From: an uncultured Gemmatimonadaceae bacterium
GTDB taxonomy: Bacteria > Gemmatimonadota > Gemmatimonadetes > Gemmatimonadales > Gemmatimonadaceae
DNA length: 64,000 bases
Reading direction: 5' to 3'
Assembly: GCA_963790305.1 (NCBI GenBank)
Contig: CAWBOC010000009.1
Coordinates: forward strand, 64,001-128,000
The notes below the pieces were generated by a model that ran no database searches, was not told the origin of the DNA, and worked only from the letters and a program-made list of their open reading frames with translations. Shown here piece by piece: positions 1 through 60,710 of the stretch. Position 1 is the stretch's first letter. Each line of letters starts with the position of its first letter. A program made the translations under genes and the position numbers.

Positions 1-1585
1 TGGCTTGTGCGGATCGAAGTCCGGTGGGAGCGGCCTGCCTAACCGCTCGGACAGCGCGCCATAGGAGCCGATTGCCACAGTGTGCTGCCCATTTCGATCG
101 CATACCCAGATCGGCAGTGGCGTGCCCCAGTACCGGTCACGCGAGAGCGCCCAGTCGATGTTGTTCGTGAGCCACTCGCCGAAGCGCTTCTGTCCCATCT
201 CCGGTGGGGTCCAGTTGACGCGGGCGTTGCGCGCCAGCATGCGATCTCGATACGCCGTGGTACGCACGAACCACGAGTCGCGCGCGTAATAGAGGAGAGG
301 TGTTCCACAGCGCCAGCAATGTGGATACGGGTGTTCGATCGTCCCCGCCTTCCAGAGCGTGCCGCGATGGCGTAGCTCCTCAATGATCAGCGCGTCCGCA
401 TCCTTCACGAACTTTCCGCCGATGACGGGGAGATCCGCGGGGAACTCCCCGCGGCCGTCAACCGGCTGGAGGAAGGCGAGCCCGTGGCGACGCCCGGCGG
501 CGTAGTCGTCGGCGCCGAACGCCGGCGCCATGTGCACGATCCCGCTGCCATCTCCGGCCGAGACGAACGACTCCGTCACGATGAGCTCGTGCTTCCCCTC
601 GCCGTACGGCACCCAGTCGAGCGGACGCCGATAGCGAAGCCCTTCGAGCGCCGCACCGGGCATACGCTGCACGATGCTCCAGCGGTCGGTCCAGTCGTCG
701 CCTAACACCGCCGCCGCGCGCGCCTCGGCGAGAATGATCGTTCCCTCATTCTCGCGATCGCGCCTCACGAGCTCGAGATAGGTGAGCTCGGGATGAACGG
801 CCAGCGCGACGTTGGAGACGAGCGTCCAGGGAGTCGTAGTCCAAACCAAGACTCTACGAGAATGCGGAATGCGGGATGCGGAAGTGCTTTCACCGCTATT
901 CCGCATTCCGGATTCCGCATTCAGCTCCAAGGCGATGTAAACACTGGGATCGCGCACGTCTTCGTATCCCTGCTTGACCTCGTGGTCCGACAGCGCCGTG
1001 CCGCACCGCGGGCAATACGGAAGGATCTTGTGCCCGCGGTAGAGCAGATCCTGACCGTGCAGCGTCGCCAGCGCCCACCACACGCTCTCGACGTAGTCGT
1101 TCGTGTAGGGTGACGTACGCGTCGTCGTAATCGAGCCAGTATCCGATGCGCGCGCTGAGGCGCTCCCAGTCGGCGCGATACCTCCACACGCTCTCGCGGC
1201 AGAGCTGGTTGAACCGCTCGACGCCAATCTCCTCGATCTGCTGCTTTCCGCTGATGCCGAGCTGCTTCTCGACCTCGATCTCCACCGGAAGCCCGTGCGT
1301 GTCCCACCCCGCCTTTCGCAGGACGCGGTAGCCCTTCATCACGCGGTACCGACAGAACAGATCCTTGATCGTGCGCGAGAAGACGTGGTGGATGCCGGGC
1401 TTTCCGTTCGCCGTCGGCGGGCCCTCGAAGAACACGAAGTTCTCTCGGCCCTCCCGCGCCTCGAGCGTACGCGCGAGAATGTTCTCCTCGGTCCACCGCG
1501 CGAGCATCTCCTCCTCGAGCACACTCGGAAGCTGCTCGGGCGGGAGTGCACGATAGTGCGTGACCGGCTGGTCGACGGCGGTCAC
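1..1585 (-). CDS. ileS: Isoleucyl-tRNA synthetase, type 2 (IleRS2); 5' part, runs off the window; one frameshift near 1110
   Basis: [16 protein letters not shown] and [10 protein letters not shown] in ORF 896-1585. Manual translation past the indel at about 1110 gives [62 protein letters not shown], and stays open to base 1. Confidence 0.97.
860..922. repeat. Heptamer-armed palindrome (GAATGCG x3 / CGCATTC x3), in frame inside ileS
   Basis: GAATGCG GAATGCG GGATGCG GAA-15 nt-TTC CGCATTC CGGATTC CGCATTC; length 63 bp. Confidence 0.92.
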
Positions 1586-2506
1586 AGGCGCTCCAGGACG
1601 CCGCGCACGAGCGTGGTGAGCTGCGGTTCGGCGCGTGCGGCGACGGCGATGATTTCGTCGACCTTCGCCGGCTCCAGCGCATCGGGCAGACAGCGGTCGG
1701 TGAAGATCGAGATGCCGAGCACGCGCATCCCGGCATGCACCGCCACGATCACCTCCGGCACCGTCGACATCCCCACGACGTCGGCGCCGGCGTTCCGGAG
1801 CATGCGATATTCCGCTCGCGTCTCGAGATTCGGGCCGGTGACCGCCGCGTAGACGCCCTCGCGGAGGACCATCTTCGCGTCGACCGCCACCTCGCGGGCG
1901 ATCTCTCGCAATGCAGGATCGTACGGCTGGGACATGTCGGGGAACCGCGGGCCGAGCGTGTCGTCGTTAGGGCCGATGAGCGGGTTGTCGCCCAGCAGGT
2001 TGATGTGGTCGGCGATGAGCATCAGCTCACCCTTGTCCCACAGCGGATTCATGACTCCGCACGCGTTCGAGACGACGAGCGTTCTCGCGCCGAGCGCGTG
2101 CATCACACGCACCGGGAACGACACTTCCTGGAGCGAGTATCCCTCGTAGCGGTGGAACCGCCCCTGCATGGCGACGACCTGCTTGCCACCAAGCGTGCCG
2201 AATAGCAATCGGCCGGAGTGGGACTCTACCGTCGACAGCGGAAACCCTGGAATCGCCGCGTAATCGATCGACGCTTGCACGTCGATCTCCCGTCCCAGGG
2301 CGCCCAGTCCCGTACCGAGGATGATCGCGACGTCCGGCGAGCCCGTGTATCGAGACCGGATCGCGGAGACGGCGGCCATGATCCGCCCCAGCGCATGCAG
2401 GGCGGTCGGCGGCCGCGCCCTCCGGCGACGCGGCAGGATGCGGCGGCAAGGCGGGTGGCGCGACCGTCGCGCGCGACCCGCCCACAGGGTCCCGCGCTAC
2501 GGTCAT
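1582..2506 (-). CDS. punA: Purine-nucleoside phosphorylase (PNP/MTAP family); probable start 2506 with an indel, intact frame from 2379
   Basis: [40 protein letters not shown] motifs. ATG at 2506 overlaps the divIVA stop. Confidence 0.93.
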
Positions 2507-3066
2507 TCCTTGATCAGTGAATCGAGCCAGGCCGGCGTCTTCTTCTCTGCTCGGGGATCCTCGTAATTCTCGTTTCGCGTCGGCTCGGGCGGTCGCGCGG
2601 GCGCTGTATCGGTCGCGTCGAGCTCGGCGAGCTGTCGCTCGACGATCGCCCGAAGTTGGCCGAGATACGCGCGCCGGGATTTCTCGAGCTGCTTGAGCTC
2701 CACCTCGAGCTTCCGAATCTCACCGCGAGCCGCTTCCAGGAGGCGGTCACCTTCCGCGCGTGCCTCGCGCAGAATCAGCTGCGCCTCGCGCTCGGCCTGC
2801 TCGCGGATCTCGGCGCGCAGTTGCTGCGCGGAGATGAGGGCATCGTTCAGCGCCTTGTCGCGCTCGCGGAACGCGCGGAGCTGCTCGTGGAAGCCCTTCG
2901 CCTTCGCGTCGAGCTCCTGATTCGCTCTCGTGAGGCGCTCGAGCTCTTCCGCCACGCGGTCGCGGAATTCCTCGACGCTGCTCTTTTCATAGCCGCCCAG
3001 ACGTGCCGGCCTGAAGTCGTGGTGCTTGACGTCGACGGACGTCAGCCGAAACGAGTCGTCGATCAT
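2503..3066 (-). CDS. divIVA: DivIVA-domain cell division/polarity protein
   Basis: LTSVDVKHHDF...GGYEKSSVEEF N-terminal domain followed by coiled coil; lies between yggS and ileS. Confidence 0.88.
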   Translation of the reverse strand: MIDDSFRLTSVDVKHHDFRPARLGGYEKSSVEEFRDRVAEELERLTRANQELDAKAKGFHEQLRAFRERDKALNDALISAQQLRAEIREQAEREAQLILREARAEGDRLLEAARGEIRKLEVELKQLEKSRRAYLGQLRAIVERQLAELDATDTAPARPPEPTRNENYEDPRAEKKTPAWLDSLIKE

Positions 3067-3746
3067 CGTGGTCTCGCTCCAAACAGGACGGTACCCAGGC
3101 GAATCATGGTGGCGCCCTCTTCCACCGCGATCTCGTAGTCGTTCGACATCCCCATGGACAGCTCGAACGCAGGGTGTCCCGCGTTCTCCAACAGCTCACG
3201 CGCGTCGCGCGCTCCAGCGAACACCCGGCGCAGCACCGGCTCATCCGCGTCCAGCGGCGCCATCACCATCACGCCGCACACTCGCGCACCCGCCAATCCC
3301 GCCAGTCGCTCAGCCTCGGCCGGAAGGTCGCTCGGGGCGTACCCGCCCTTGGTCCCCTCACCGGCGACGTTCACCTGCACAAGCGCATCCACCGCGCGCC
3401 CGCGGGCCAACCCATGGTCGCACACGGCATTAGCGAGACGCGCGCTGTCCAGCGAATGCAACAGCGCAAACCGATCGACCGACTTGACCTTGTTGCGCTG
3501 AAGGTGCCCGATCAGGTGCCATGACACCGGAATGGCGACCTCGCCCATCTTCGCCAACGCTTCCTGCACCTTGTTCTCACCAATGTCCCGAAGCCCGGCG
3601 TCCCAGGCCGCGGTGACCGCGTCGGGACCGTGCGTCTTGGTCACCGCAACGATCGTAACCCGTTGCCCATGTCCCCCGCGGGCCGCGGCTGCGGCGATCC
3701 GGTCCCGCACCTCCGCCACGCGCGCCGGGAGGTGGTCAAAACTCAT
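3063..3746 (-). CDS. yggS: PLP homeostasis protein YggS/YlmE
   Basis: VAVTKT, GENKVQE, WHLIGHLQRNK, LSMGMSNDY, IRLGTVLFG. Confidence 0.96.
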   Translation of the reverse strand: MSFDHLPARVAEVRDRIAAAAARGGHGQRVTIVAVTKTHGPDAVTAAWDAGLRDIGENKVQEALAKMGEVAIPVSWHLIGHLQRNKVKSVDRFALLHSLDSARLANAVCDHGLARGRAVDALVQVNVAGEGTKGGYAPSDLPAEAERLAGLAGARVCGVMVMAPLDADEPVLRRVFAGARDARELLENAGHPAFELSMGMSNDYEIAVEEGATMIRLGTVLFGARPR

Positions 3747-3779
3747 AACGCCGTAACCTATCGGAAGTTACACGTCGAA

Positions 3780-5675
3780 TCAAGCGAACGTAGCGACGCG
3801 GTTCTCCCGCAAGGAGCCCGCAATCACCGAAGGACAACGCAGTGTGCGCGCCATGAATCGCGGCGCCCTGTCCGGTGTGTCCAAAGGCTCGCGCGCGAGC
3901 ACCTTGGCGGGAATGAGCCGTGCCGCCCGCTCCGCCAGCTGGACGTCGCGCGTTATGCCCGGTGGGCCGGGGCGGGCGTGGAAGGTGATCCCGTCGAGGA
4001 GCCAGGCCCGGGAGAGCTGCGAGCGCCGGGCACTGTCCAGGAATACGGACGCGGCGAGCGGACGCCGCTCACGCGCTGCCACGCTCGCCAATGCGCGCAG
4101 CCGCTGGCCCTGGCTCATGCGCGACGTCACCGCCTCGAGGGGCAACAGTCCATGCCGCGTCGCGACTTCCGCGCGGTACCAATCGGCACCGAGCAGCGGC
4201 GCAGTGATGACCGCGACGTCGGGACGTACCCCTTCGACGAGTTGGAGATACCAGAGCGGAAAGGAGTCGTTGTCGCCGCCCGTGACCAGAATCGCGCCCG
4301 CGGGAAGCGGAGCCAGCCATGCCCGTGCCGCGACATGCGCCAACGAGGCCTCTGGCTCGCGACGGCGGTTGGTCACGCGCCAGTTCAGCACGACAGGGAG
4401 GCACGCCACCGCGACGCCTAACCATTGAAGGCGTCGGCTCGACAGGAGACGGACCGCACCGTAGCCGGCCCACGCCCCCCACACGAAAAAGCCGAGAGCA
4501 AAAAAATAGTCCCGCTCGCGCACTTCGTGGCGATCGCCTTCCGGGATGAACGTCCACGCGTAGGACGCCCCCGCCTTGAAGTTCATGTACGCCACGAGTC
4601 CTGCGGTCGCGGACGCAAAGACGGTCATCAGCGCAAGCCAGCTTCGGCGGTCATCCCGCGCGTGCCGCACGCAACCCGTTAGGCCGAGCGCGGCGTAGAT
4701 CGCCGTCCATGGCGTCCGGAGCCACGAGGCGCCCACGGCGGCATCGAGGCCCATGGCGAACTGCCAGTCGAGATACTGAACAAGGTTGCCGAGCTGAATC
4801 CAGAGCGGCGCCTGACGAGGCCACAGTCCGCTCGGGGCATACTGGCGACGGGCGATCACATCGAGGAGCGCGGACCACGTCTCGGGATTTCCGGCATCGA
4901 GCGCGGGGTCGTGTGCCGAGCGCACGAGCAGAACGAGGACTGCCGACAGTCCGAGCAGGACGACTCCGACCATGCTCAGGGCGTCGACTCGCGCTCGCAG
5001 CCCTCCAACCGCCGCAATGATCACCCCGATCAGTATTACGGGCACCGACACCATTCCCCCGCCAGCCGCGATCACTGCTGCGCCAAGGAGCGTCATGGCC
5101 CGCGTCGCGCGCATGCTGCCGGTTTCGTCGAGAGACGCAAGCAGGATCGCCCCCGGCGCGCCAACGAGCGCGCTCATGTGAAGCGGAACGGCCAGCGCGA
5201 AGAGGTAGGCAAGGAGAACGCTCCACCTCGCGTTGCTCTCGCGTCCTGCGCGATCTCCCACCACGAGCATGGCGAGCGACAGCGCGAGTGAGGCGGCGTA
5301 CACCTCCGTCTCGGTGGCGTTCGACCACACGGTCGCCGTCACGCCGGCGCAGACTCCGGCCGCAAGTGCGGCGATGGGCTGCCGTGTCGCGCGGGCCAGC
5401 ATGGCGGCGAGCAGGGCCGCGGCGGCCGCAGTGGCCGCGGCGGAGAACAGGTTCGTCGCCAGGGCGCGGGGGAGGAGCCCGAGCGCATCGCTCCACACGC
5501 GGGCGATGAGGACGTACAGCGGGGTTCCCGGCGGATGCGGGATACCGACGGTCTCGATCGCGGCGATGAACTCGCCCGCATCCCAGAGCGTCACGGTGGG
5601 CGCGACGGTCGCCACGTACACGACGAACAGAAGCGCGCCGGCCAGGGCCGGCGCGAGCCGCTGCCGCGCGAGCAC
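3780..5675 (-). CDS. DUF2723 membrane protein (TMEM260-like GT-C glycosyltransferase)
   Basis: WDAGEFIAA..GIPHPPGTPLY, ETEVYA, RERDYFF, GDNDSFPLWY; many hydrophobic segments. Confidence 0.85.
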   Translation of the reverse strand: MLARQRLAPALAGALLFVVYVATVAPTVTLWDAGEFIAAIETVGIPHPPGTPLYVLIARVWSDALGLLPRALATNLFSAAATAAAAALLAAMLARATRQPIAALAAGVCAGVTATVWSNATETEVYAASLALSLAMLVVGDRAGRESNARWSVLLAYLFALAVPLHMSALVGAPGAILLASLDETGSMRATRAMTLLGAAVIAAGGGMVSVPVILIGVIIAAVGGLRARVDALSMVGVVLLGLSAVLVLLVRSAHDPALDAGNPETWSALLDVIARRQYAPSGLWPRQAPLWIQLGNLVQYLDWQFAMGLDAAVGASWLRTPWTAIYAALGLTGCVRHARDDRRSWLALMTVFASATAGLVAYMNFKAGASYAWTFIPEGDRHEVRERDYFFALGFFVWGAWAGYGAVRLLSSRRLQWLGVAVACLPVVLNWRVTNRRREPEASLAHVAARAWLAPLPAGAILVTGGDNDSFPLWYLQLVEGVRPDVAVITAPLLGADWYRAEVATRHGLLPLEAVTSRMSQGQRLRALASVAARERRPLAASVFLDSARRSQLSRAWLLDGITFHARPGPPGITRDVQLAERAARLIPAKVLAREPLDTPDRAPRFMARTLRCPSVIAGSLRENRVATFA

Positions 5676-5678
5676 GCG

Positions 5679-6479
5679 TTAGGCGCGGAGCTCCAGCACC
5701 GGATGCTCCCCCGTCGGACGCGGGGCGCGTCCGGCGAGCACGTCACGCAGCTGCGGCGCCGTGAGGTTGCGAATCAGCCTGCCCTGCTCCGCCACCGAGA
5801 TGATCGACGTCTCCTCCGACACGACGATGACCAGGGCATCCGTCTCCTCGGAAAGTCCAAGGGCGGCCCGGTGCCGCGTGCCGAGCGTGCGATCGGAAAG
5901 CGGTCGCTGAGAGAGCGGCAGGATGCACCCCGCCCCGATGATCATGTCGCCTCGAATGATCACCGCGCCGTCATGCAGCGGTGAGTACGGCGTGAAGATC
6001 GTCGCCAACAGATCGGCCGACACCTTCGCCTGCATTGCCGAGCCCGAGCCGACGTAATCCCCCAGTCCCATCTCGCGCTCGATCGCCAGAATCGCTCCGA
6101 TTCCCGAGCGGCAGAGGCGCTCGACGGCATCCACGATCTCGTCCGCCACCTCGGCCGCTTCCATCCGCCGGAAGATGCGCGTGAAGCGCGAGTGACCGAG
6201 ATGCGCAAGCGCGGCACGGAGCTCGGGCTGGAACACCACCACCGCGGCGAAGGCACCGTAGGTGAACACGAAGCCGAGCAGATACGTGATCATCGTGAGC
6301 TTGAGCACCCACGCCATCGCGTACACGAGCACGAGCACGATGATGCCGAGGAGCATTCGAAGCGCGCGCGTGCCATGAATGAGGAGCAGCAGCCGGAAGA
6401 TGACGTACGCGACCACGATGATACCGATCGCGTCGCGCCACCCGAACTCGAGGAATCGGAACTGATCGAGAAAGCTCAC
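5679..6479 (-). CDS. cdaA: Diadenylate cyclase CdaA/DacA
   Basis: Three N-terminal TM segments, FQPELR, LHDGA and GTRHRAA catalytic motifs, VVSEETS. Confidence 0.95.
   Translation of the reverse strand: MSFLDQFRFLEFGWRDAIGIIVVAYVIFRLLLLIHGTRALRMLLGIIVLVLVYAMAWVLKLTMITYLLGFVFTYGAFAAVVVFQPELRAALAHLGHSRFTRIFRRMEAAEVADEIVDAVERLCRSGIGAILAIEREMGLGDYVGSGSAMQAKVSADLLATIFTPYSPLHDGAVIIRGDMIIGAGCILPLSQRPLSDRTLGTRHRAALGLSEETDALVIVVSEETSIISVAEQGRLIRNLTAPQLRDVLAGRAPRPTGEHPVLELRA

Positions 6480-7335: not shown

Positions 7336-7339
<4 letters not shown>
6476..7339 (-). CDS. folP: Dihydropteroate synthase
   Basis: MGILNVTPDSFSDGG, DVGGESTRP, DPGIGF, SRKRF, RVHDV. Confidence 0.97.
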
Positions 7340-9317
<1,978 letters not shown>

Positions 9318-9318
<1 letters not shown>

Positions 9319-11190: not shown

Positions 11191-11234
11191 GTCTCGATAC
11201 ATTTCCGGCTCCCACTCTCGCGCAGAGGAAAGCT

Positions 11235-22872: not shown

Positions 22873-23049
22873 CGTCCCACCTCCCCGCGCGAAAGGGCCG
22901 GCCGCGGAGCGACCTCATCGTCGCGTCCCTCGCACGGGCCTCACTCGCTTCTAGTTAGCGAGAATCATACCCTCGCTAGGCAGTGTGGACTGCTCGCACG
23001 TCGTGTTCGTGACACGGGTCACGCGCGTTAGGTGGTTGTTCGGTACACA

Positions 23050-23151
23050 AACGGCGGAGACGTCAGATGGCAGAATCCGGAACTCAGAATTCAGCGGTTG
23101 GCAATCTGAAATCTGACATTCCGTATTCCGACGTCTGACGGCTTTGCCGTT
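23050..23151. repeat. Heptamer-armed hairpin
   Basis: AACGGCGGAG a CGTCAGA TGGCAGA ATCCGGA ACTCAGA ATTCAG ... TCTGAAA TCTGACA TTCCGTA TTCCGAC GTCTGAC gg CTTTGCCGTT; abuts the hydrolase stop. Confidence 0.8.
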
Positions 23152-24034
23152 ATCCGATGAGATGCCGTACCACGGCCTCGATCGCCGACGCATCGTAGAG
23201 CACGCGGCGGTGCCCCATGCCTCGCACGGCGTGGAGCGTCGCCCCGCGCCATGCACTCGCCAGCGCCTCCGCCTGCGAGAACGGCACCTGGCGGTCGGCG
23301 GGATCGTGCAGTATCAGCGCGCGTGCCTCGAGCGATCGCACGGCGTCGGCGCCGTCGATATCCTGAATGCCAACCCCCGCGCGGCGCCCGATGGCGGCGG
23401 CGAGACCCTCGCACCGGGCATCAGCGAAGCCGAGCAGATCGGCAAGTCGCCGCACGAACAGCCACGGCTCGGCGACGGGCGCGAGCAGTGCCGCCGCCGA
23501 CGCCGACAGGCCATCGCGAAGCGCGAGGACCGTCGCCGCTGCACCTAACGAATGCCCCACCACCGCGTCGGGCGTCCCGGTAGCGCGGGCGACCGCCGCC
23601 ACGGCGTCGGCCATCTCGATCAGTGTCGTGGTTCGACCGGTCGACCGTCCGTGAGCCGGCATGTCGAAGACCGTCACGCTTCGACCCCGCTGCGCGACCG
23701 CGTCCGCCATCGGCACCATGTCCCGACCGGTGCCTTCCCACCCGTGCGAGAAGAGCACGCGAGGGCCCTCACCCCAGGTCCACGTCACGACGCGCCTCGA
23801 CCCCGATGACACCAGCTGCTCGCGCGCGTGCGCAGGGACCGTTGGCACGTCGCGGTGCGTGAGCCGTCGCGGAAAGCAGAAGAGGAACGCGGCCTGGCGG
23901 TCGGCGGCGCGCGGCGCCACGCGCGCGAGGAGACCGAAGTAGGCGCGCATGAGGGAGATGTGAAGCGCGCCGATGCGAACGCTCGTGCTTTTTGTGCGGC
24001 GCGGTCCACGCGCGACGGCCGTCGACGTTTCCAT
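23150..24034 (-). CDS. Alpha/beta hydrolase
   Basis: HGWEG, DMPAHG, GHSLG nucleophile, HDPAD, GMGH. Confidence 0.92.
   Translation of the reverse strand: METSTAVARGPRRTKSTSVRIGALHISLMRAYFGLLARVAPRAADRQAAFLFCFPRRLTHRDVPTVPAHAREQLVSSGSRRVVTWTWGEGPRVLFSHGWEGTGRDMVPMADAVAQRGRSVTVFDMPAHGRSTGRTTTLIEMADAVAAVARATGTPDAVVGHSLGAAATVLALRDGLSASAAALLAPVAEPWLFVRRLADLLGFADARCEGLAAAIGRRAGVGIQDIDGADAVRSLEARALILHDPADRQVPFSQAEALASAWRGATLHAVRGMGHRRVLYDASAIEAVVRHLIG
23971..23992. promoter_or_regulatory. Putative TetR operator copy inside the hydrolase coding sequence
   Basis: CGATGCGAACGCTCGTGCTTTT, 21/22 identical to 24647-24668. Confidence 0.65.
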
Positions 24035-25950: not shown

Positions 25951-26152
25951 GGCTTCCTCGCAAGCGCTCTAGTGGATGATGCCATTGCCCGCTTCTGCGG
26001 CATTCGTGCCTGGCGGAAGATAACCAAATCACCACCGCATCACCGGAGTTGTGTAGGGGCGGGGCGCTCGATAGGCAGCCACACCAAGCCCGCCCGAAAG
26101 CCCATTCGGAAAGACTCGAGCCAACCACCGAACAGTGATTGGCTCGTTCGAA

Positions 26153-26226
26153 TAGCAGGGGCGGGACTCGAACCCGCGACCCCGGCATTATGAGTGCCGT
26201 GCTCTAACCAGCTGAGCTACCCTGCC
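26153..26226 (-). tRNA. tRNA-Met (CAT), elongator type; CCA not encoded
   Basis: GGCAGGG TA GCTC AGCTGGTTA GAGC A CGGCA CTCATAA TGCCG GGGTC GCGGG TTCGAGT CCCGC CCCTGCT A. Confidence 0.93.
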
Positions 26227-26270
26227 AGAAACCTGAAACGGCCGGCCCTTTTAGGACCGGCCGTCTGCAA

Positions 26271-26344
<74 letters not shown>

Positions 26345-26355
26345 ATAGTGACCGA

Positions 26356-26387: not shown

Positions 26388-26453
26388 GAATGCGAAAAGC
26401 GGAATGCGGAACCAGATGCAGTAAAAACCTTCCGCATTCCGCCTTCCGCATTC
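26388..26453. repeat. Heptamer-armed palindrome (GAATGCG family)
   Basis: GAATGCG AAAAGCG GAATGCG GAA-18 nt-TTC CGCATTC CGCCTTC CGCATTC; 4 bp past the ftsB stop. Confidence 0.9.
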
Positions 26454-36683: not shown

Positions 36684-36774
36684 AGGTGATCGAGGTGGGC
36701 GAGGATGTCGAAGGTGATCGAGGCGCTGACGCTCACCTGGATCACCTCGATATCCTCGACTACCTCGACACCCT
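36684..36774. repeat. Nonamer-armed hairpin
   Basis: AGGTGATCG AGGTGGGCG AGGATGTCG aAGGTGATCG AGG ... CCT GGATCACCT CGATATCCT CGACTACCT CGACACCCT. Confidence 0.85.
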
Positions 36775-37872: not shown

Positions 37873-37957
37873 CGAATGCGGAATTGCGGAATGCGGAGTT
37901 GAAACTCGCGCACAGAATCGTGTTTTCAGTCGTTCCGCATGCCGTATTCCGCATTCG
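37873..37957. repeat. Heptamer-armed palindrome (GAATGCG family)
   Basis: C GAATGCG GAATTGCG GAATGCG GA ... TTC CGCATGC CGTATTC CGCATTC G; 4 bp past the acyl-CoA dehydrogenase stop. Confidence 0.88.
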
Positions 37958-42683: not shown

Positions 42684-42826
42684 GAGCACCTTCCGAAGAC
42701 GTCAGAGGTCAGACATCAGATGTCAGTTGTCAGATAACCTACGGGGAGCCGGCTTGCGGCTCCCCGTAATGGTTTTCTGAACACTGAGACCTGACGTCTG
42801 GCCCCTGACGTCGTCGGAAGTTGCTC
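42684..42826. repeat. Heptamer-armed hairpin with a perfect 12-bp core stem
   Basis: GAGCACC TTCCGAA GACGTCA GAGGTCA GACATCA GATGTCA GTTGTCA GATAACC TACGGGGAGCCG-gcttg-CGGCTCCCCGTA ... TGACGTC TGGCCCC TGACGTC GTCGGAA GTTGCTC. Confidence 0.9.
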
Positions 42827-44980: not shown

Positions 44981-45018
44981 GAAACCTCCTGAAAGACTCT
45001 TGGACGTGCGAAAAACGA

Positions 45019-45218
45019 GGAACCGCAGATAGCCGCAGATAGCCGCAACAACAACTGCAACCGCAGTTGGCCACGGCTGAACGCGCATAACAGCCACGGA
45101 TTGTTCCGAGTCCGGACTAGCCCTCCTCACGTGAAACATCCTGCTTTTCCGTGAAAACGGTGGCTGGCGTTTTACGCCGTTGCAGTTCTTGCGGCCTTCT
45201 GCGGCCATCTGCGGTTCC
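45019..45218. repeat. 200-bp MITE-like element with decamer-repeat inverted arms
   Basis: GG AACCGCAGAT AGCCGCAGAT AGCCGCAA..AACTGCAAC ... GTTGCAGTT c TTGCGGCC TTCTGCGGCC ATCTGCGGTT CC; inner CAGCCAC/GTGGCTG pair. Confidence 0.85.
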
Positions 45219-45224
45219 ACGGAC

Positions 45225-48260: not shown

Positions 48261-48415
48261 GAGCTAGGGGTCAGGAGTCAGGAGTCAGGGATGGAAAGGC
48301 AAACGGCCGCGCAGCGCGCGGCCGTTTGCTCATCCGATGAGTGCCGCACGCGCGAAGCGCGGCGGCACCTTTCCTCCCCTGACCCCTGACTCCTGACCCC
48401 TGACCCCTTACTCCA
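48258..48415. repeat. Heptamer-armed multibranch hairpin upstream of valS
   Basis: TAGGAGC TAGGGGT CAGGAGT CAGGAGT CAGGGAT GGAAAGG ... CCTTTCC tcc CCTGACC CCTGACT CCTGACC CCTGACC CCTTACT; three internal hairpins. Confidence 0.88.
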
Positions 48416-53716: not shown

Positions 53717-54285
53717 CGGTCTCGCGCCCCGCTGCGTTCCTCGACCGCGACGGGACGATCATCCACGACGTCGACTACATCTCGCGGCCCGACGATGTTC
53801 AGCTGCTTCCAGGCGCGGCGGAGGCGATACGGTCGCTGAACAATGCCGGCGTTCCCGTCATCGTCGTCTCGAACCAGTCAGGTCTCGGGCGCGGCTATTT
53901 CACCTACGATGATTACGAGCGCGTGCGTGCCCGGATCGAGGAGCTGCTGCATGCCGCTGGGGCGCATGTCGACGCGACATACATTTGTCCCCACCCACCT
54001 ACGACGCCGGCCGCCTGTGCGTGTCGCAAACCGGGCGTCGGCCTCTTCGAGCAGGCAGCGAAGGAGCACGGGCTCGACCTCGCTGGCTCCTGGTACGCTG
54101 GCGACAAATGGCGCGACGTGCAGCCCGGGCTCACGCTGCACGGCCACGGCTTTCTGATACGCGCTCCCTCCACACCTCCCGAGGACCTCCAGCGCGCACA
54201 GAGAAGCGGCATTGTTCGCGACTCACTAACCGATGTCGCCCGGGAGATCATCGCCACCCTTACAGGCGGGCAGAGCACGCGATAA
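53713..54285 (+). CDS. gmhB: HAD IIIA phosphatase, GmhB-like
   Basis: FLDRDGT, SNQSG, CPH..CACRKP, GDK. Confidence 0.88.
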   Translation: MTVSRPAAFLDRDGTIIHDVDYISRPDDVQLLPGAAEAIRSLNNAGVPVIVVSNQSGLGRGYFTYDDYERVRARIEELLHAAGAHVDATYICPHPPTTPAACACRKPGVGLFEQAAKEHGLDLAGSWYAGDKWRDVQPGLTLHGHGFLIRAPSTPPEDLQRAQRSGIVRDSLTDVAREIIATLTGGQSTR

Positions 54286-54296
54286 CATCTGCGCAG

Positions 54297-54989
54297 ATGA
54301 CGGCGCGGATCGCAGTGTTCGCCTCCGGGCGCGGCTCCAACCTGCAGGCCCTGTACACGTATCTCGAGCGTGCTGGTGGCGCCGAGGTGGTGCTCGTCGC
54401 CTCCGATCGCGCCGCGAGCGGAGCGCTCACGTGGGCACGTGACCATGGAATCACCACGTCGACGCTCGGCTCCGGCGGCGATGACGCGAACGCGATCCTT
54501 CAGCTGCTGGCAGCATCACGGGTCGACTGCGTCGTACTGGCCGGCTACCTCCGACTGGTGCCCGCCGAAGTCGTACGGGTGTATCGAGGCCGGATCGTGA
54601 ACGTGCATCCAGCCCTGCTGCCCGCGTTCGGTGGTTCGGGCATGTACGGCGCGCGTGTTCATCGCGCGGTCCTCGCATCGGGCGCCCGGGTGAGCGGGCC
54701 AACCGTGCATTTCGTCGACGAGGTATACGATCACGGCGCGATCATCGCCCAATGGCCAGTTCCGGTTTTCCCCGGTGACACGGAAGCGGCACTCGCCGCG
54801 CGCGTGCTGCGCGCCGAGCATTTGCTGCTGCCGCGCGTGGCACATCTCGTCGCGGTCGGTCGCGTCACCTTGAACGGCGGCTCGCGCGCAACCGCTGGTC
54901 AGTCCCCGCACGAGCGTACTGCCTTTCTCCTTGCCACACCGGAGGATGATGCTCTTGCCGAAAGCATGGCGAGCGCGGTCAACGGCTAG
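54297..54989 (+). CDS. purN: Phosphoribosylglycinamide formyltransferase
   Basis: ASGRGSNLQA, LAGYLR, NVHPALLP, TVHFVDEVYDHG. Confidence 0.96.
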   Translation: MTARIAVFASGRGSNLQALYTYLERAGGAEVVLVASDRAASGALTWARDHGITTSTLGSGGDDANAILQLLAASRVDCVVLAGYLRLVPAEVVRVYRGRIVNVHPALLPAFGGSGMYGARVHRAVLASGARVSGPTVHFVDEVYDHGAIIAQWPVPVFPGDTEAALAARVLRAEHLLLPRVAHLVAVGRVTLNGGSRATAGQSPHERTAFLLATPEDDALAESMASAVNG

Positions 54990-57016
54990 CGCCGTCGCGC
55001 TCCTCATAGTTGCGTCACCGGCGTCGAGTCAGCGCCGTGCGGTCGATGCCATCGCGACCTGGATTGCGCTCGACGCGCCGGTTGGACATGAGCAGCTCGC
55101 GACGGACATCATTCGTCGCGAGCTGCCAGGCTGGTCGCGCGACCGCACGGGCAATCTCCTCATGCGTCGCGGCACGGGAACGCCGCGCAGAGTCGTCGCC
55201 TGCGCGCTCGATCAGGGGGCGTACGTGGTTTCGGCGATTACTCCGAGCGGCTATTTGCGCCTGCACGGCTCGGGAAATCCTCGACGTCATCTGCTGTGGG
55301 ATCAGTTCCACGAGGGCCAACGCGTGCGCGTGCTCACGCGCGCGGGCGCGGTGCAAGGTGTCATCGCGGTTCGCAGCACTCACCTCTGGCGTCGTCGTTC
55401 GGCGGACACACTCATCGCATCCGTCGACGACATGTGGGTCGACGTTGGCGCGCGCAGCCCCGCCGACGTTCGCGCGCGCGGCATCGAGATGCTCGATCCT
55501 GTCGTTCGCGAGTGGCCTTCGTGGCGCTACGGTGAGTTCGTTGCCGGTCCTGGCGCGGCAACGCGCGCCGCGTGCGCCGCGGTGGCGGCCGCTTCGCGGC
55601 AAACACCGGCTGGCGGCGAAACGGTGTACATCCTCGCCGCCCAGTCGGCGTTCAACCACGTGGGACTCGCCGCGGCGCTTGCCGAGCTCGGAAGCGCCGA
55701 CACCGTGACTCTCGTCGATCCGTCGATAGGCGATACGACCGAGACTGTTCAGTCGCGACGCGCCGCCGCCCTTCCCTTCAACCTCCCCGCGGGAGTGCGC
55801 ATTCAGGCAACGATGGTGCTCGGGGCACGCTCGGCATTCCGGGGAACGCTTGCCGAGAGCATCCAGGAAGGCGATGCGCGGGTCCTACTCGGCGAAGTGC
55901 TCGAGGCGGCGGGTGTGAGCGCTACCAATGTGACGTGGCCATTCCTTCGCGGCGCGACGCCGCTCGCGACGATCGCGCCTCGGCGCGATTCACTCACCCC
56001 GGTCGCCGACTTGTTGGGGTTGCTCGCCGATGAGTATGGGGTGTCCGGACACGAGGAGCCGGTGCGCAACGCCGTGCGCAACGCACTTCCTGCGTGGGCT
56101 CGCACGATCGCGCGCGTGGATACGGCCGGCAACCTGATCGTCGCGATAGGCCCGGAGCGTGACACGGTGGTATTCGTCGCGCACCTCGATGAGATCGGCT
56201 TCGAGGTCACGTCGATATCGGCCAATGGTCAGGTTTCGCTGCGCCAACGCGGCGGGTTCTACCCATCACTGTTCGAAGGACAGCCCGCGCTCCTGCATCT
56301 CCCACCGCGACCGCAGGACACCGCGAGCTTCATCCGCGGGGTGTTCGTGCCGCGCAGGACCGTGACGTCGAAGCAGCCGCAAAACCTCACCGCCTGGTTT
56401 GGTGTCGACTCGGCGGCACTCGTCGCCCGCGGCGTGGCCATCGGACGATCGCTGACGAGCTGGAAGCGGTCTGCGCGCCTGGGCGCCACGCAGGTTCACC
56501 GCACGGTCGATCGACGACCGCGCCGGCTCGGCGGCCCTCGTGTTAGCGCTCGCGCGTCTCGACCGCACGCGCCTTCCGCGGAAGGTGATCTTCGTGTGGT
56601 CCGTTCGCGAGGAAACGGCGTTGGCTGGTGCGGCCGCTGCAGCCGCGACGTTCGGTACGAGCGTGACGCGCGTGCACGCCGTCGACACCTTCGTGTCGGC
56701 TGACTCGCCACTCGAGAGCGGACGATTCGCAGTCGCGCCCATTGGGCGAGGTGCCGTCGTGCGCGCTCTCGACAATTCGAGTATCGCTCCGCGACAGGAG
56801 GTCGAGCGGGTGGTCCGCATCGCACAGGAACAACGCATCCCGCTGCAGGTGGGCACGACCAATGGCGGGAACGACGGGTCGGTGTTCACGCGCTATGGCG
56901 TCGTCGACGTCCCGATCTCGTGGCCGCTGCGCTACAGTCACTCTCCGGCGGAGCTCATCGACCTGGGCGACGTGCATGCGCTCGCCCGACTCGTCGCCGC
57001 ACTCGCGCGCAACTAG
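54946..57016 (+). CDS. Exported tandem M42/M20-type metallopeptidase (indel near 56492)
   Basis: Signal-like N-terminus and two M42-like halves; the second has AHLDEIG, DDRAG, REE, DT, YSHSP. Confidence 0.85.
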
Positions 57017-57022
57017 TCGATC

Positions 57023-58558
57023 ATGCCGCGCGCGCTCCTGTCGGTATCGGACAAGAACGGCTTGACCGAGTTCGCTCGCGGGCTCGTCGCTCTCGGGATG
57101 GGAGCTGATCTCGACCGGCGGAACCGCGCGGGCCCTCCGCGAGGCGGGCCTGTCGGCCACCGACGTCGCGAGCGTCACCGGGTTTCCCGGAGATGCTCGA
57201 CGGTCGGGTCAAGACGCTTCATCCCAAGATTCACGGGGCGCTGCTCGCGCGCCGCGACTCGCCAGAGCACATGCGCGCGCTCGCCGAGCACGAGATTCAG
57301 CCGATCGATCTCGTGGCGGTGAATCTGTATCCATTTCGCGAGGCGGTGTCGCGTCCCGACATCGCGCCGGAAGACGCCATCGAGCAGATCGACATCGGCG
57401 GCCCTTCAATGCTCCGCTCGGCAGCGAAGAACTTTGCATCGGTGTACGCGATCGTGGATCCGAGCGACTATGCGCGCGTTCTGGCTGCGCTGGCGGCGGC
57501 GGATGATGACCTCGATCTGCGCCGCCTGCTCGCCGGGAAAGTGTTCGCGCACACTGCCACGTACGATGCGGCAATCTCGGCGTGGTTCGCGGCGCGGCGT
57601 GGCAATGTCTTCCCCGAGCACATGACGCTGGGGCTGCGAGCGCGCGCAGACCCTGCGGTACGGGGAGAATCCAGACCAGCGTGCGGCCTTTTACGTCGAG
57701 CGCTCAGGTGCTGGACTGGCGAGTCTCGAGCAACGCGGCGGCAAGGAGCTTTCGTTCAACAATCTCCTCGATCTCGAGGGCGCGTTGCTCGCGACCGATC
57801 CTTTTGGCGAGCAGGTCGCCTGCGCGATCGTGAAGCATACGACGCCATGCGGGCTGGCGGTGGGGCGCGACGCTCTCGATGCGTATCGTAAGGCGCTCGC
57901 GTGCGATCCCGTATCCGCATTCGGATCGGTGATCTCGCTGACGGTGCCCGTCGAGGAAGCCGCCGCGGAAGCGATCTCGAGCCTGTTCGTGGAATGCATC
58001 GTGGCTCCTGGCTTCTCGGAGGGCGCGGTGGAGATCCTCGGACGCAAGAAGAACCTTCGCGTGCTTCAGGGCACCGCGCCGTGGCCGCGTGCCTCGGCCG
58101 ACCTGAAGCGAGTTCGTGGTGGCTTGCTGGTGCAGGAGCGCCCGGCGGCCATGGGCGCGTACGAGACGTGGCAGGTCGTCACGCGCCGCACTCCGACCGA
58201 TGCCGAGCGTGACGACCTCCTGTTCGCCTGGCGCGCCGTCGCCACCGTCAAGTCCAACGCGATAGTGCTGGCGCGCGACGGCGCGACCATCGGGATCGGG
58301 GCGGGCCAAATGTCCCGCGTGGACGCGTCCTTTCTCGCGGTGCACAAGGCCCGAACCGCGAGCCACGCGACATCTGGCGCGGTGCTGGGTTCGGATGCGT
58401 TCTTTCCGTTCCGCGACGGCGTCGATCAGGCGGCCGAAGCGGGCATCACCGCCATCGTCCAACCCGGCGGCTCCGTTCGCGATGCCGAGGTGATCGCGGC
58501 GGCCGATGAGCACGGGATGGCGATGGTCTTCACCGGGCAGAGGCAGTTCAGACACTGA
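57023..58558 (+). CDS. purH: Bifunctional AICAR transformylase/IMP cyclohydrolase; several indels
   Basis: [56 protein letters not shown]. Confidence 0.96.
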
Positions 58559-58615
58559 GCAGGTGCTCGAGGCACCTGTTCATCGGCATCGATCTCACCA
58601 TGTACTCGAGCCTGG

Positions 58616-59332
58616 ATGCTGACCGTCGTAGCAGTCGCGGCATGCACCGCCGCACCCCGAGAGTCTTCGACTGCTGACACGAGCGCGCGAGCGCAGGAGA
58701 CAGCCATGACGACCTCGACGTCAGAGCAGGGCGCGGGGGGATGGCGCTCGCTGTTCGACGGCGCGACGACGACCGGCTGGCGCGGATACAAAAGCTCCGA
58801 TGTTCCGGACGGCTGGCGCGTCGTCGACGGCGCGCTCACGCGCGTGGGGGCGGGCGGCGACATCATCACCACGGATCAGTTCGGCAATTTCGAGCTCTCG
58901 CTCGAGTGGAAGGTGCAGCCGCGCGGGAACAGTGGCGTGTTCTATCGCGTGACCGAGGAGGGCGACAACACGTACTTCACCGGCCCGGAAATGCAGGTGC
59001 TCGATGATGCCGGTCACGCCGATGGAAAATCCCGCCTAACGTCCGCCGGCGCCAACTATGGCCTGTACCCGGCTCCCACCGGTGTCGTGCGGCCCGCCGG
59101 GCAGTGGAACGAGGCGCGCATTCTGGCCAACGGAGCGCACGTCGAGCATTGGCTCAACGGCACCAGGATGGTCGAGTACGAGCTCTGGAGTCCGGACTGG
59201 GAGAAGCGCGTGCGTGAGAGCAAGTTCGCGGCGTGGCCAAAATATGGGCGGGCCACCCGCGGACATATCGGCTTGCAGGATCACGGGGATACGGTTGCCT
59301 TCCGCAACATCAAAATCCGGGTGCTGCCATGA
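58616..59332 (+). CDS. DUF1080 lipoprotein (3-keto-disaccharide hydrolase family)
   Basis: VAA-C lipobox; [45 protein letters not shown]. Confidence 0.9.
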
Positions 59333-60590
59333 AGAGTGTGAACGCGCGACTATCGGTCATGATGTTCCTGCAGTTCTTCATCTGGGGCGCCTGGTACACG
59401 ACGATCGCCGTGTACATGACGAGCGAGGGGATGGGAACCCTCACCCATTGGCCGTACACCGTGAACCCGATCGCGGCGATCGCGGCGCCCTTCTTCGTCG
59501 GCCTGGTGGCGGACAGGTTCTTCGCGACCGAGCGCGTCTTCGGCATCCTGCACCTGCTGGGCGGAGTGGTGTTGCTCGCCGCGCCGCAAACCGTTGGCAA
59601 CTCGACGCTTTTCATCGTCATGCTGCTGCTCTACAACCTCTGCTACATGCCGACGATCGCGCTGTCGAATTCCCTGGCGTTTCACAATATCGCCGACCAG
59701 GAAAAGCAGTTTCCGCGAATCCGGGTATGGGGAACGATCGGCTGGATCATCGCCGGATTGTTCATCAGCTTTGGGCTCGCGAAGTTCGTGAGCGGCATCA
59801 AGCCGGAGGAGACGGCCCTGCCGCTCTACACGGCCGGGGTGGCGAGCCTGCTGCTGGCGGCCTTCAGCTTCACGCTTCCGCATACTCCGCCGCCGGCTCG
59901 TGGACAGGCAGTGAGTGCGCGGAGCGTCATTGGACTGGACGCGTTCCAGCAGCTGGGGAGTCGCCCCTTCTACGTCTTCATCATCAGCGCGCTGCTGTTG
60001 TGCATCCCGCTCGCCGCGTACTACAACTTCACGCAGCTCTACCTCGCGACGGCGCGCGTCGAGAACATCGCGGCGACGCAAACGCTGGGGCAGGTGTCGG
60101 AGACGGTCTTCATGTTCCTGATGCCGTTCTTCTTCGTCCGCCTGGGCGTGAAGAAGATGTTGCTGGCCGGCATGGCCTCGTGGGTACTCCGCTACGTCCT
60201 GTTCTCCCTCGGAGCACCCAATGCGGTCTACTGGATGATCGTCGGCGGCATCCTCCTGCACGGGCTCTGCTACGACTTCTTCTTCGTCACCGGCATGATC
60301 TACGTCGACAAGAAATCGACGTCGGCGATTCGCGGGCAGGCACAGGGCTTCTTCGTCTTCGTCACCTACGGCGTTGGGCATGTTGATCGGGGCGCAGGTG
60401 GCGGGGAACGTGTACAACCGCTTCCTCGCCGGGGCACCTGGCGCTGACGCTCGACCAGTGGAAGAGCTTCTGGCTCCTCCCGGCAGGATTCGCGGCAGCG
60501 GTGCTGGTCTTCTTTGCGCTGGCGTTCCACGACCGTGAGGTAGAAGCGAGGCGTCGTGCAGGACTGGCGGCGACGTCGGCTGGTCCGTAA
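59329..60590 (+). CDS. MFS nucleoside/sugar:H+ symporter (NupG/YegT-like; indels near 60380-60440)
   Basis: MMFLQFFIWGAW, ADRFF, RVWGTIGW, LPHTPP, LHGLCYDFFFV. Confidence 0.9.
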
Positions 60591-60595
60591 GTCGG

Positions 60596-60710
60596 GAACG
60601 GCAAAGAGAACAGCAATACAGAATACGGAAACGACCACGGGGAGCCATGACTGGCTCCCCGTCGGTTTTGTCTGAATTCTGAATTCTGCAGGCTGTCATC
60701 TTTGCCGTTC
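60596..60710. repeat. Heptamer-armed hairpin between convergent genes
   Basis: GAACGGCAAAGA ... CAGAATA CGGAAAC ... ACGGGGAGCCA-tgac-TGGCTCCCCGT ... TCTGAAT TCTGAAT TCTGCAG ... TCTTTGCCGTTC. Confidence 0.88.

Follow-up and report, generated by a model that had tools for sequence, protein, structure and literature searches.

REPINs are doublets of short palindromes that fold into hairpins and occupy persistent sites in hundreds of extragenic copies, and each REPIN family has one cognate RAYT gene that is flanked by the family's own repeats. Rickettsia palindromic elements insert in frame into protein genes and are translated as a surface loop, and the STRR of cyanobacteria are heptamer direct repeats. 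In Leptospira and Coxiella, intervening sequences (IVS) in 23S rRNA reportedly carry an S23p or four-helix-bundle ORF. An IVS is an insertion in a helix of 23S rRNA that RNase III cuts out. Members of the four-helix-bundle family have been described in rRNA insertions in the available part of one report (PMC11270868). TAACTGA heptamer direct repeats occur in cyanobacteria and Beggiatoaceae, with one inverted case among 170 sets and no hairpin design or enclosed gene in the portion of that paper at hand (PMC4679880). The nearest description is that of Rehm et al. (2015) of GGGAATC heptamer repeats of Xanthomonas where, according to the accessible text, arms of 28 nt made of four heptamers form convergent pairs that are G-rich on each strand and lie 21-135 nt apart (PMC4692102). 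These pairs are located 2-16 nt past the upstream gene in housekeeping operons (groES-groEL, atpA-atpG, and lepA-lepB) and repeat #15 abuts XCC0516 (PMC4692102). The same text deals with one unit in one genus, interprets the repeats as quadruplexes, and makes no link to a small gene (PMC4692102).

The initial annotation of the window, which is the whole 64,000-nt stretch of an uncultured Gemmatimonadaceae bacterium analysed here, listed nine hairpins with periodic inverted arms and took them for a candidate undescribed system. All nine were found at their reported coordinates with 22-58 paired positions each, and refinement of the arms moved the starts at 23050, 36684, 45019, 48258, and 60596 to 23051, 36685, 45016, 48266, and 60593, respectively (Table 1). 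Each has two inverted arms that are pairable tandem arrays of 7-10-nt units, and the arm periods given by TRF were 7, 9 or 10. When folded as RNA, eight of the nine (all but 45016) had z values of -3.65 to -14.14 and not one of the 200 dinucleotide shuffles made for each of the eight folded as well. The claim of novelty stood only in part, since gene-less inverted heptamer arrays are already on record in Xanthomonas. Like the Xanthomonas repeats, as far as the accessible text describes them, the hairpins are convergent G- or purine-rich arrays close to the upstream gene end, but there are about ten families per genome here, each tied to a gene-bearing copy, and most are without G-runs (at least three G per unit), which are lacking in GAATGCG, GAGGTCGTC, AGAGGCGCT, and CAGAATT. 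Intergenic tandem heptamers and a patchy occurrence across phyla are shared with the heptamer direct repeats which, in the part of that literature available, are direct arrays that lie mostly upstream of start codons, unlike the hairpins here.

Table 1. Periodic-arm hairpins of the window (window positions; z from folding against dinucleotide shuffles)
Element	Arms	Unit family	Core and ends	z	Site
860..922	860-883 / 899-922	GAATGCG	15 nt	-8.28	in frame within minus-strand IleRS-like gene, translated as loop
23051..23150	23051-23094 / 23106-23150	CAGAATT/GACGTCA	outer ACGGC..GCCGT, part of GGGAACGGCAAAGA-type ends	-3.65	arm end overlaps by 1 nt the stop of minus-strand hydrolase gene (23150..24034)
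26388..26453	26388-26411 / 26430-26453	GAATGCG	18 nt, unique	-6.48	DivIC-like gene stop 4 nt away on one side, two tRNA-Met genes on the other
36685..36772	36685-36723 / 36736-36772	9-mer (GAGGTGATC / GAGGTNNTC)		-8.59	stop 0 nt away
37873..37957	37873-37897 / 37934-37957	GAATGCG	36 nt	-6.12	same-strand acyl-CoA dehydrogenase and Glu/Leu/Phe/Val dehydrogenase genes; stop 4 nt away
42684..42826	42684-42751 / 42757-42826	GACGTCA/CAGATGT	GC-rich inner hairpin (ACGGGGAGCC..GGCTCCCCGT), then T-run	-10.94	
45016..45221	45016-45064 / 45176-45221	10-mer (CCGCAGATAG / CCGCAGATGG)	111 nt		3 nt past stop of ThrRS-like gene
48266..48401	48266-48320 / 48349-48401	AGGGGTC/AGGAGTC	GGAAAGG, hairpin A, CTCATCNGATGAG, hairpin B, CCTTTCC; common to 21 copies	-14.14	5 nt past BON-domain gene stop, ahead of ValRS-like gene
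60593..60713	60593-60647 / 60652-60713	GGGAACGGCAAAGA / CAGAATW	inner terminator-like hairpin and T-run	-9.03	convergent genes; 0 nt to minus-strand stop, 145 nt to plus-strand stop

The eight intergenic copies, said to lie within about 10 bp of a stop codon, were found at -1 to 5 nt from the stop with our own gene caller. The copy at 860 is more than non-intergenic, as the IleRS-like ORF reads through it in frame, and the DPSVY..LE and LVWTTTPWT motifs flank it in each of the six genomes compared. In this it resembles the Rickettsia palindromic elements, unlike which most copies here are extragenic, and the likeness is one of description.

Well beyond the window, hundreds more copies were found, and the genome holds a total of about 498 gene-less periodic-arm hairpins with a period of 7 in 236, 9 in 210, 8 in 23, 10 in 14, 11 in 13, and 6 in 2. 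An inverted partner within 400 nt was present for 442 of 662 period-7 arrays and 412 of 820 period-9 arrays compared to only 5 of 252 period-6 arrays, the pairing score threshold being 13 and the 99th percentile of the reversed but not complemented control being 11. Of the 498 elements, 491 have a purine-rich 5' arm, and the orientation is uniform inside every unit family. Proximity to stops also holds genome-wide, with 283 of 498 elements within 10 nt of a stop as against 2.9% of random positions, and 449 of the 3409 called stops, or about one gene end in eight, carry a hairpin. In tandem gene contexts (n=187), a hairpin lies a median of 4 nt from the upstream stop and 41 nt from the next start, and convergent stops flank 107 of the 498 elements. 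The hairpins are not ordinary terminators. A T-run of at least 4 within 12 nt past the 3' arm was found in 18 of the 449 oriented elements (4%), and a GC-rich stem followed directly by a U-run, as in an intrinsic terminator, is formed only by the inner hairpins of 42684 and 60593; the statement that the window copies lack clear U-tracts does not apply to these two.

GAATGCG is the commonest unit, with 107 copies, and the next largest families have 87 and 81. Multi-copy families have near-identical arms and in some cases near-identical cores: identical 23-nt arms occur with unrelated cores at about a hundred sites, a core of about 70 nt is common to 21 copies with 92-100% identity, and a family of about 190 nt with terminal inverted repeats has 9 copies. 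One dispersed element sits nested within the arms of another hairpin, and inner modules such as GAGGGCTCCGA..TCGGAGCCCTC are found inside differing outer arms. The ends of the elements are themselves palindromic (e.g. CTAG...CTAG) and because of this a target-site duplication is indistinguishable from the repeat.

It had also been suggested in the initial annotation that small four-helix-bundle and GxxExxY genes are often flanked by such arms, of which the window copies would be the empty forms, no such gene being in the window. All the TIGR02436 (four-helix-bundle) and TIGR04256 (GxxExxY) genes of this genome are indeed outside the window. Periodic inverted arms bracket the 6 TIGR02436 genes without exception; among the 4 TIGR04256 genes they bracket 3, the fourth being at a contig start where its arm is cut, and the arm-to-arm span of the bracketed genes is 468-784 nt. 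A full cassette is one small gene between inverted arms of 3-5 tandem 7-10-nt units. Each of the ten genes has its own unit, which gives ten families with one gene-bearing copy each, and these copies follow the same post-stop placement rule; the 10-mer unit of 45016..45221, for example, also brackets the GxxExxY gene at C9:843178-843645. When the gene-less hairpins were compared with the ten gene units, 435 of 498 could be assigned to a family but only 24 of 498 when the arms were shuffled, and independent TRF clustering recovered the same leading units. The window copies are therefore empty forms of the cassette, as had been supposed. As in MITEs, terminal inverted repeats are common to the gene-bearing element and to multiple dispersed copies, and by analogy the gene-less copies would relate to the gene-bearing ones as a miniature derivative relates to the full element or a REPIN to its RAYT. 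Of 29 four-helix-bundle loci examined in relatives of the same order, 27 have arms, mostly of period 7, whose scores exceed those of all 198 control small genes. For the genome's four-helix-bundle protein, the best match in the structural database is the XCC0516 structure 2gsc (E 4e-19). To our knowledge, neither TIGR02436 nor TIGR04256 is a known transposase family, and we know of no catalytic activity for the four-helix-bundle fold. The cassettes resemble the 23S IVS in their long stem, made by inverted ends, around an optional small gene of the same protein family (TIGR02436 / PF05635), in having gene-bearing and gene-less forms, and in their sporadic distribution across taxa. Unlike the IVS, they lie past the stops of ordinary genes and once in a coding loop rather than in rRNA, and they have tandem 7-10-nt arms, GxxExxY as a second gene family, and hundreds of gene-less copies; the two 23S genes of the genome (3045 and 3016 nt) have no periodic-arm insertion.

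Among genomes of the same genus, (GAATGCG)x3 occurs 44 times in this genome, 3 and 6 times in two others, and not at all in the remaining six; it was found in one of 16 other genera of the family, and the reversed control gave 0. At least 122 loci were present across many phyla, in the same hairpin polarity: a downstream partner was found at 30 and an upstream one at 2. In five same-genus genomes the orthologous sites were usually occupied, with nearly all evaluable ones filled, but the relatives have non-identical hairpins or empty sites and not identical hairpins at the same loci. Often the family at the occupied site is another one, for which the genome in question has a matching gene-bearing copy. 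Two sites, at 36685 and 37873, lack a hairpin in G003 and are occupied by other families in G001, G004, and G008. At 37873 these are GGGCCAA in G001, CTGCGTA in G004, and CTGCGAA in G008, and a four-helix-bundle gene with GGGCCAA arms is present in G001, one with CTGCGTA arms in G004, and one of each kind, CTGCGAA-armed and CTGCGTA-armed, in G008. At 42684, on the other hand, all five relatives have the same family. Overall, a matching gene-bearing copy exists in the same genome for 19 of the 28 hairpins of the relatives' orthologous regions, compared to 0 of 28 when shuffled. The match was low in G001 (4 of 9 hairpins) and G003 (1 of 4); families can exist without a gene-bearing copy, or the copy may be unassembled. 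The strong sharing of sites would be expected under a host function or a strict site preference no less than under selfish persistence. These relatives, which are 73-91% identical in the aligned window pieces and too distant for exact junctions, showed no transposition event, target duplication or excision footprint.

A probable explanation, as far as sequence comparison can carry it, is that the nine hairpins represent the gene-less form of a selfish element, here called the periodic-arm hairpin cassette, that is present about 500 times in the genome. As selfish DNA, the elements would reach gene ends where a hairpin is tolerated, by being copied there or by overwriting the site, and slippage plus template switching between the arms would keep these periodic and self-complementary. 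One-base unit changes are present in all units of both arms, which we take as concerted evolution of the arms. The encoded protein may recognise the arm of its own cassette, in single-stranded or hairpin form, and promote copying or maintenance of the element, or it may process the RNA, as the initial annotation supposed of trans-acting factors; both mobility and the action of the protein are what we infer. On host transcripts the hairpins probably behave as tolerated stem-loops, in analogy with the IVS of 23S rRNA. A more specific version, which is possible but doubtful, is that each protein reads its own periodic arm in a sequence-specific manner and drives a transposase-less copy-and-overwrite to its own family. 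One subunit would read one 7-10-nt unit of the purine-rich 5' arm in an extruded or transcribed hairpin, and the protein would convert any resident gene-end hairpin to its own family. This would explain why sites persist despite family switching, why hairpins track the gene-bearing copies of their own genome, why the polarity is fixed, and why there are two huge families of tiny genes of 'unknown function', including the ORF of the 23S IVS.

It is unlikely that the hairpins are RNA structures that serve the host at gene ends (a terminator, a REP-like 3' stabiliser, or an RNase III site between cistrons) and both arise and change in place by slippage, with the small genes as unrelated passengers. 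Such a role would suit the placement 0-10 nt past stops and between convergent stops, the filling of the same intergenic sites in most relatives, the inner GC-rich hairpin and T-run that one family retains at the same site across the six genomes, and the cores, of which 108 of the 231 that are at least 20 nt long fold by themselves at -10 kcal/mol or better. It sits poorly with the scarcity of T-runs past the stem and with the mismatches, as G:U did not exceed A:C on the sense strand (226 vs 209 in 220 one-directional elements, p 0.44), and the copy at 860 is translated within an essential-type gene. Evolution in place, moreover, cannot yield identical 23-nt arms around unrelated cores, and the families are patchy within one genus, each with a gene-bearing copy that has the same arms. 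There is also little chance that the small genes are the mobile part and that periodic hairpins already in place are the targets into whose loops they home, as into 23S rRNA helices. Members of the four-helix-bundle family are known from rRNA-helix intervening sequences in the part of the report available (PMC11270868), and the nested element and the inner modules shared by different outer arms are what homing might leave. If homing were random by family size, however, the largest families would offer most targets, and the probability that all ten genes are in different families is about 2e-5, a figure that is partly circular because the arms of the gene-bearing copies served to define the ten families. 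Homing also does not explain why gene and arm are paired again in relatives (AGGGGTC-armed genes in G000, G004, and G008 and GGGCCAA-armed ones in G001, G006, and G007), or where hundreds of identical hairpins came from.

Very improbable, in our view, are regulatory repeats that form quadruplexes or i-motifs, as proposed for the Xanthomonas GGGAATC arrays. Here too the purine- or G-rich strand is always the 5' arm, in the same convergent arrangement as in the accessible account of Xanthomonas (PMC4692102), and some units have G-runs, e.g. AGGGGTC and GAGTGGG; but the four units named above, that of the 107-copy family among them, have no run of three G, and pairing of arm to arm is far more stable than in shuffles. 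We give hardly any credence to a system of the REPIN/RAYT or IS200/IS605 type or to a retro-mobile element copied through RNA, in spite of the hairpin-doublet form, the copy number in the hundreds, the one protein-coding 'master' per family, and the long-lived sites. The four-helix-bundle protein is related to Avd, a reverse-transcriptase partner, by a match to NF033474 that is below the cut-off of that profile (E 7e-7). What speaks against such a system, besides the periodic arms and the other protein folds, is that this 94%-complete genome had no match to the Y1 (HUH) transposase of RAYTs (PF01797) or to the reverse transcriptase RVT_1 (PF00078), when the controls matched 6 and 3 of 14 reference genomes, respectively.

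The purine-rich 5' arm, the post-stop and pre-start distances, the rarity of T-runs, the family switching at orthologous sites, and the translated copy at 860 are newly seen here. If the hairpins are selfish cassettes, about one gene end in eight of this genome bears a selfish hairpin, and these hairpins belong to a cross-phylum class of elements that is unnamed in the literature searched. Two very large families of small uncharacterised proteins would thereby gain their first functional context, as would the unexplained ORF-bearing intervening sequences of 23S rRNA, and the published 'quadruplex' repeats of Xanthomonas would have to be reinterpreted. Annotators would also be warned not to take such stems for terminators or regulatory sites. 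The fixed polarity of the arms and the way in which hairpins track gene-bearing copies offer testable handles on the mechanism.

The hairpins are real and abundant. All nine that the initial annotation had reported in the window, named here by their start positions, were present at 860, 23050, 26388, 36684, 37873, 42684, 45019, 48258, and 60596, and the periodicity claimed for their arms held, with Tandem Repeats Finder (TRF) calling a period of 7, 9 or 10 in the arms. When the left half of each hairpin was aligned locally with the reverse complement of its right half, 22-58 positions were paired (n = 9), and RNA folding gave z scores of -3.65 to -14.14, with none of 200 dinucleotide shuffles as good for any of eight hairpins (all but 45019). 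The source genome, G000 (4.31 Mb, 66% G+C, 13 contigs), in which the window is C9:64001-128000, was scanned for TRF arrays of period 6-11 with their reverse complement at most 400 nt away, and a partner was accepted at an ungapped score of at least 13, the 99th percentile of a reversed, non-complemented control being 11. Such a partner was found for 442 of 662 period-7 arrays, 412 of 820 period-9 arrays, and 5 of 252 period-6 arrays. Once arrays were merged, G000 held 498 elements, so that the further copies proposed to exist outside the window are indeed there. A stricter TRF-pair method gave 340 elements in 58 unit types, the commonest being AATGCGG (74) and ACCCCTG (46). Since the strict method recovered only four and the looser one only six of the nine known hairpins, 498 is an underestimate.

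The elements sit at gene ends. Stops were accepted by a home-made caller based on codon log-odds if the last 60 codons scored best of the six frames, which gave 3409 stops in G000. The closeness to stop codons claimed for the window extends to the whole genome, as 283 of the 498 elements have a stop at most 10 nt away compared to 2.9% of random positions, and 342 have one at most 30 nt away compared to 4.3%. A stop is overlapped by 132 elements, 107 have stops on both sides, and 449 of the 3409 stops are served by an element. In tandem-gene contexts (n = 187) the upstream stop was at a median distance of 4 nt and the next start at one of 41 nt, and the stop was nearer than the start in 164. 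The 129 elements found more than 100 nt from any accepted stop include some in divergent contexts, some whose stop was missed, and about 18 that possibly lie within open frames. Three of the nine window hairpins have GTTAGG(C/T) about 25 nt away or closer, at 23027, 36779, and 37860, and two tandem tRNA-Met (CAT) genes (26152-26345) adjoin hairpin 26388.

The arms also have a polarity. The unit strand that forms the 5' arm is constant within every unit family, and this arm is purine-rich in 491 of the 498 elements and pyrimidine-rich in four, with G exceeding C in 469 and C exceeding G in 17. Because a palindrome is identical on both strands, this bias is an intrinsic handedness and not an insertion orientation. 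The tandem word (GAATGCG)x3 has equal handedness in other phyla, where by a strict test the partner lay downstream at 30 and upstream at two of 122 loci.

Among 449 oriented elements, only 18 have a run of at least four T after the 3' arm, and the canonical terminator was rejected. Selection on the RNA of the sense strand was likewise rejected, as G:U mismatches numbered 226 in the sense and 209 in the antisense-only direction (220 one-directional elements, p 0.44). A search of sequencing runs gave just four from soil, two of them recorded as RNA, and each had 5-9% of the sequence words, in the form of contigs. Copy 860 cannot be a terminator. Here Pfam tRNA-synt_1 matches a pair of ORFs that overlap on the minus strand, one at 896..1585 (profile 2-140) and the other at 1..1227 (from profile position 137), and the latter runs straight through the hairpin. 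In G000 and five relatives a long ORF reads from ...DPSV(Y/F)..LE through a hairpin-encoded peptide into ...LVWTTTPWT; the peptides differ among the six genomes, and the differences between the gap lengths (71, 77, 44, 83, 74, and 74 nt) are multiples of three. It is seen directly from the sequence that GAATGCG and its complement have no stop codon in any frame, and at this site G008 and G004, two same-genus genomes, carry GATTGCG units, one base per unit away from GAATGCG. The IleRS-like gene of G000 is itself split between two overlapping frames on the minus strand, with the junction near 1090-1101, and in the five relatives the region is a single ORF of 679-1340 codons stop to stop; the split stems either from an indel in the assembly or from a frameshift that arose recently. 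As to known mobility systems, genome searches found no RAYT/Y1 transposase and no RVT_1 reverse transcriptase in G000, and neither of its 23S rRNA genes holds an intervening sequence or armed insertion. In an alignment of 3053 columns these two genes (G000:C9:615825-618869 and G000:C6:138470-141485) differ in 148, small indels at helix tips among them. This divergence is unusually high for one genome, and the assembly could combine several strains, or an operon could have been acquired by transfer.

Copies enclosing a small ORF, which the initial annotation had suggested looking for, were found at C5:70534, C9:843183, C10:203198, and C7:189542. The long-range search for arm pairs with cargo genes (spacing 250-6000 nt) gave 84 pairs in G000, most of them merely adjacent complete elements. 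NCBIfam identified the ORFs between arms as TIGR02436 (four helix bundle protein) and TIGR04256 (GxxExxY protein), of which G000 has six and four genes, respectively. The suggestion that such genes are often flanked by arms of this kind was borne out in G000, as periodic inverted arms bracket every one of the six four-helix-bundle genes and, of the four GxxExxY genes, three. The GAATGCG-armed four-helix-bundle gene is in the region C10:203511-203726, and the CCGCAGATGG-armed GxxExxY gene is at C9:843253-843588.

Gene-bearing cassettes of G000 (contig coordinates) and state of the hairpin sites (window positions) in same-genus genomes
Feature	Location	Arm unit or state
Four-helix-bundle cassette	C5:70534-71055	AGGGGTC/AGGAGTC
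Four-helix-bundle cassette	C7:167315-167847	GAGTGGG
Four-helix-bundle cassette	C7:227884-228421	GAGGTCGTC
Four-helix-bundle cassette	C9:163271-163781	CAGATGT/CAGAATT
Four-helix-bundle cassette	C9:787676-788209	AGAGGCGCT
Four-helix-bundle cassette	C10:203200-203840	GAATGCG
GxxExxY cassette	C5:638842-639336	CACAGAGG
GxxExxY cassette	C9:843178-843645	CCGCAGATGG
GxxExxY cassette	C5:741630-742413	GCATCCAGGTTCAAAGTTGGGACGCGGATT-type ends and period-9 GCGGATNNN
GxxExxY gene	C5:72-419	arm cut by contig start
Hairpin sites	36684 and 37873	G001, G004, G008: hairpins of other families
Hairpin site	37873	G004 CTGCGTA, G008 CTGCGAA: one-base difference in all units of both arms
Hairpin site	42684	same family in five of five relatives
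Hairpin site	48258	family kept in four relatives, core inverted in G001; G003: another family
Hairpin site	45019	G008: same 10-mer arms; G004: CGCAGAGG-type family; G001 and G006: CGCAGATGA-type arms; G003: only right arm recognisable
Hairpin sites	26388 and 23050	relatives: ACGAGGA-type or other units; G000: GAATGCG or CAGAATT

The arm units of the gene-bearing copies are those of the gene-less families in G000. With one or two mismatches tolerated per unit, 435 of the 498 elements could be assigned to one of the ten gene-arm units compared to 24 of 498 with shuffled arms; the unassigned ones are mostly further unit variants, and the others form a few small families for which the assembly has no gene-bearing copy. 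The ten genes fall in ten different families, which has P ~2e-5 if genes were dropped randomly by family size, a value that is partly circular because the families were defined from the genes' own arms. Independent TRF-pair clustering yielded leading units identical to the gene-arm families. Gene-bearing copies also follow the placement of gene-less ones, and in most of them a stop is 2-18 nt away. In six to seven of nine gene-bearing cassettes the small gene runs antisense to its host neighbours, and in one it runs sense; the numbers are small, and such an orientation would imply an own promoter and an antisense relation to read-through transcripts. At C7:189542-189910, the core between GAATGCG arms is 298 nt long and contains an ORF of 86 codons that is weakly CopZ-type metallochaperone-like (E 3e-4, below the cut-off), and this could be captured cargo or two abutting half-elements.

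The families are dispersed in the genome. In the AGGGGTC family, 21 copies have a common core of about 70 nt at 92-100% identity, in the order GGAAAGG, hairpin, CTCATCNGATGAG, hairpin, CCTTTCC, and this core is found in both orientations. A family of about 190 nt with long terminal inverted repeats has nine copies in G000, and two of these are nested in a hairpin of GAACTGC type, with its arms on either side. In the GAATGCG family (71 by exact and 107 by fuzzy count), arms of a constant length, about 3.3 units, surround unrelated cores of 6-60 nt, and a subfamily carries an inner module. Adjacent elements had a unit in common in 41 of 485 pairs compared to 27.7 ± 4.5 by chance.

To compare filled and empty sites, five same-genus genomes were aligned with the window over its full length, and identity in the aligned pieces was 73-91%; site 60596 was not placed in these alignments. 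Empty sites of the kind looked for do occur, as 36684 and 37873 are empty in G003, with gaps of 24 and 5 nt. At 48266-48401 the two-hairpin AGGGGTC-family core of G001 is inverted relative to G000, G004, G008, and G006, and recombination between the inverted arms would give this. The families at orthologous sites match gene-bearing copies within their own genome: G004 has CTGCGTA-armed and GATTGCG-armed four-helix-bundle genes, G008 has CTGCGAA-armed and CTGCGTA-armed ones, and G001 has a GGGCCAA-armed one. Hairpins of the orthologous regions that matched a gene-bearing copy of their own genome were 5/5 in G004, 9/10 in G008, 4/9 in G001, and 1/4 in G003, and in the shuffled control 0/28. Taken together, these data show that sites persist while families switch, and that the resident family tends to be one whose gene-bearing copy that genome holds.

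The same design is found well outside this genome. (GAATGCG)x3 has 44 matches in G000, six in G006, three in G001, and none in six other same-genus genomes. Of 16 further genera in the family, one has the word, and the reversed control had no match anywhere. Species genomes from many phyla nevertheless contain it at 122 or more loci, frequently within a hairpin built in this way. The four-helix-bundle family was found in 36 of 41 genomes sampled from the order, and 27 of 29 loci (one per genome) had flanking inverted arms that scored 33-135, the maximum among 198 small control genes of G000 being 29; these arms were mostly of period 7 with very diverse units. G001, G003, G004, and G008 together have 46 genes of both families, and most of those not cut by contig ends have periodic arms.

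In the literature, Rehm et al. 2015 (PMC4692102) describe Xanthomonas GGGAATC arrays that have arms of 28 nt and make up 70-75 convergent pairs. The arrays follow the upstream gene at a distance of a few nt within housekeeping operons and are interpreted there as quadruplex formers. Their 'convergent' arrangement, as given there, matches the arm polarity of the G000 elements. Repeat #15 of that paper's table adjoins XCC0516, the far side of which is absent from the table, and among solved structures that of XCC0516, 2gsc (five chains), matches the four-helix-bundle protein of G000 best (E 4e-19). For the GxxExxY protein, sequence search gave no solved structure at E <=0.01. Two further papers describe the TAACTGA repeats of Beggiatoaceae as direct arrays ahead of start codons (PMC4679880) and the four-helix-bundle family as known from rRNA intervening sequences and functionally uncharacterised (PMC11270868). 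The tandem GAATGCG word was not found in a literature search, and searches by gene-family names, chiefly of titles and abstracts, returned no link of gene-less hairpins or repeat arms to these genes.

The hairpins are best read as gene-less members of periodic-arm cassettes, which in their full form have a gene of the four-helix-bundle or the GxxExxY family. There is good indirect support for the view that they are selfish and that copying or conversion takes place between sites at gene ends. We infer, in a form that can be tested, that the four-helix-bundle and GxxExxY proteins may be the readers of their own arms.
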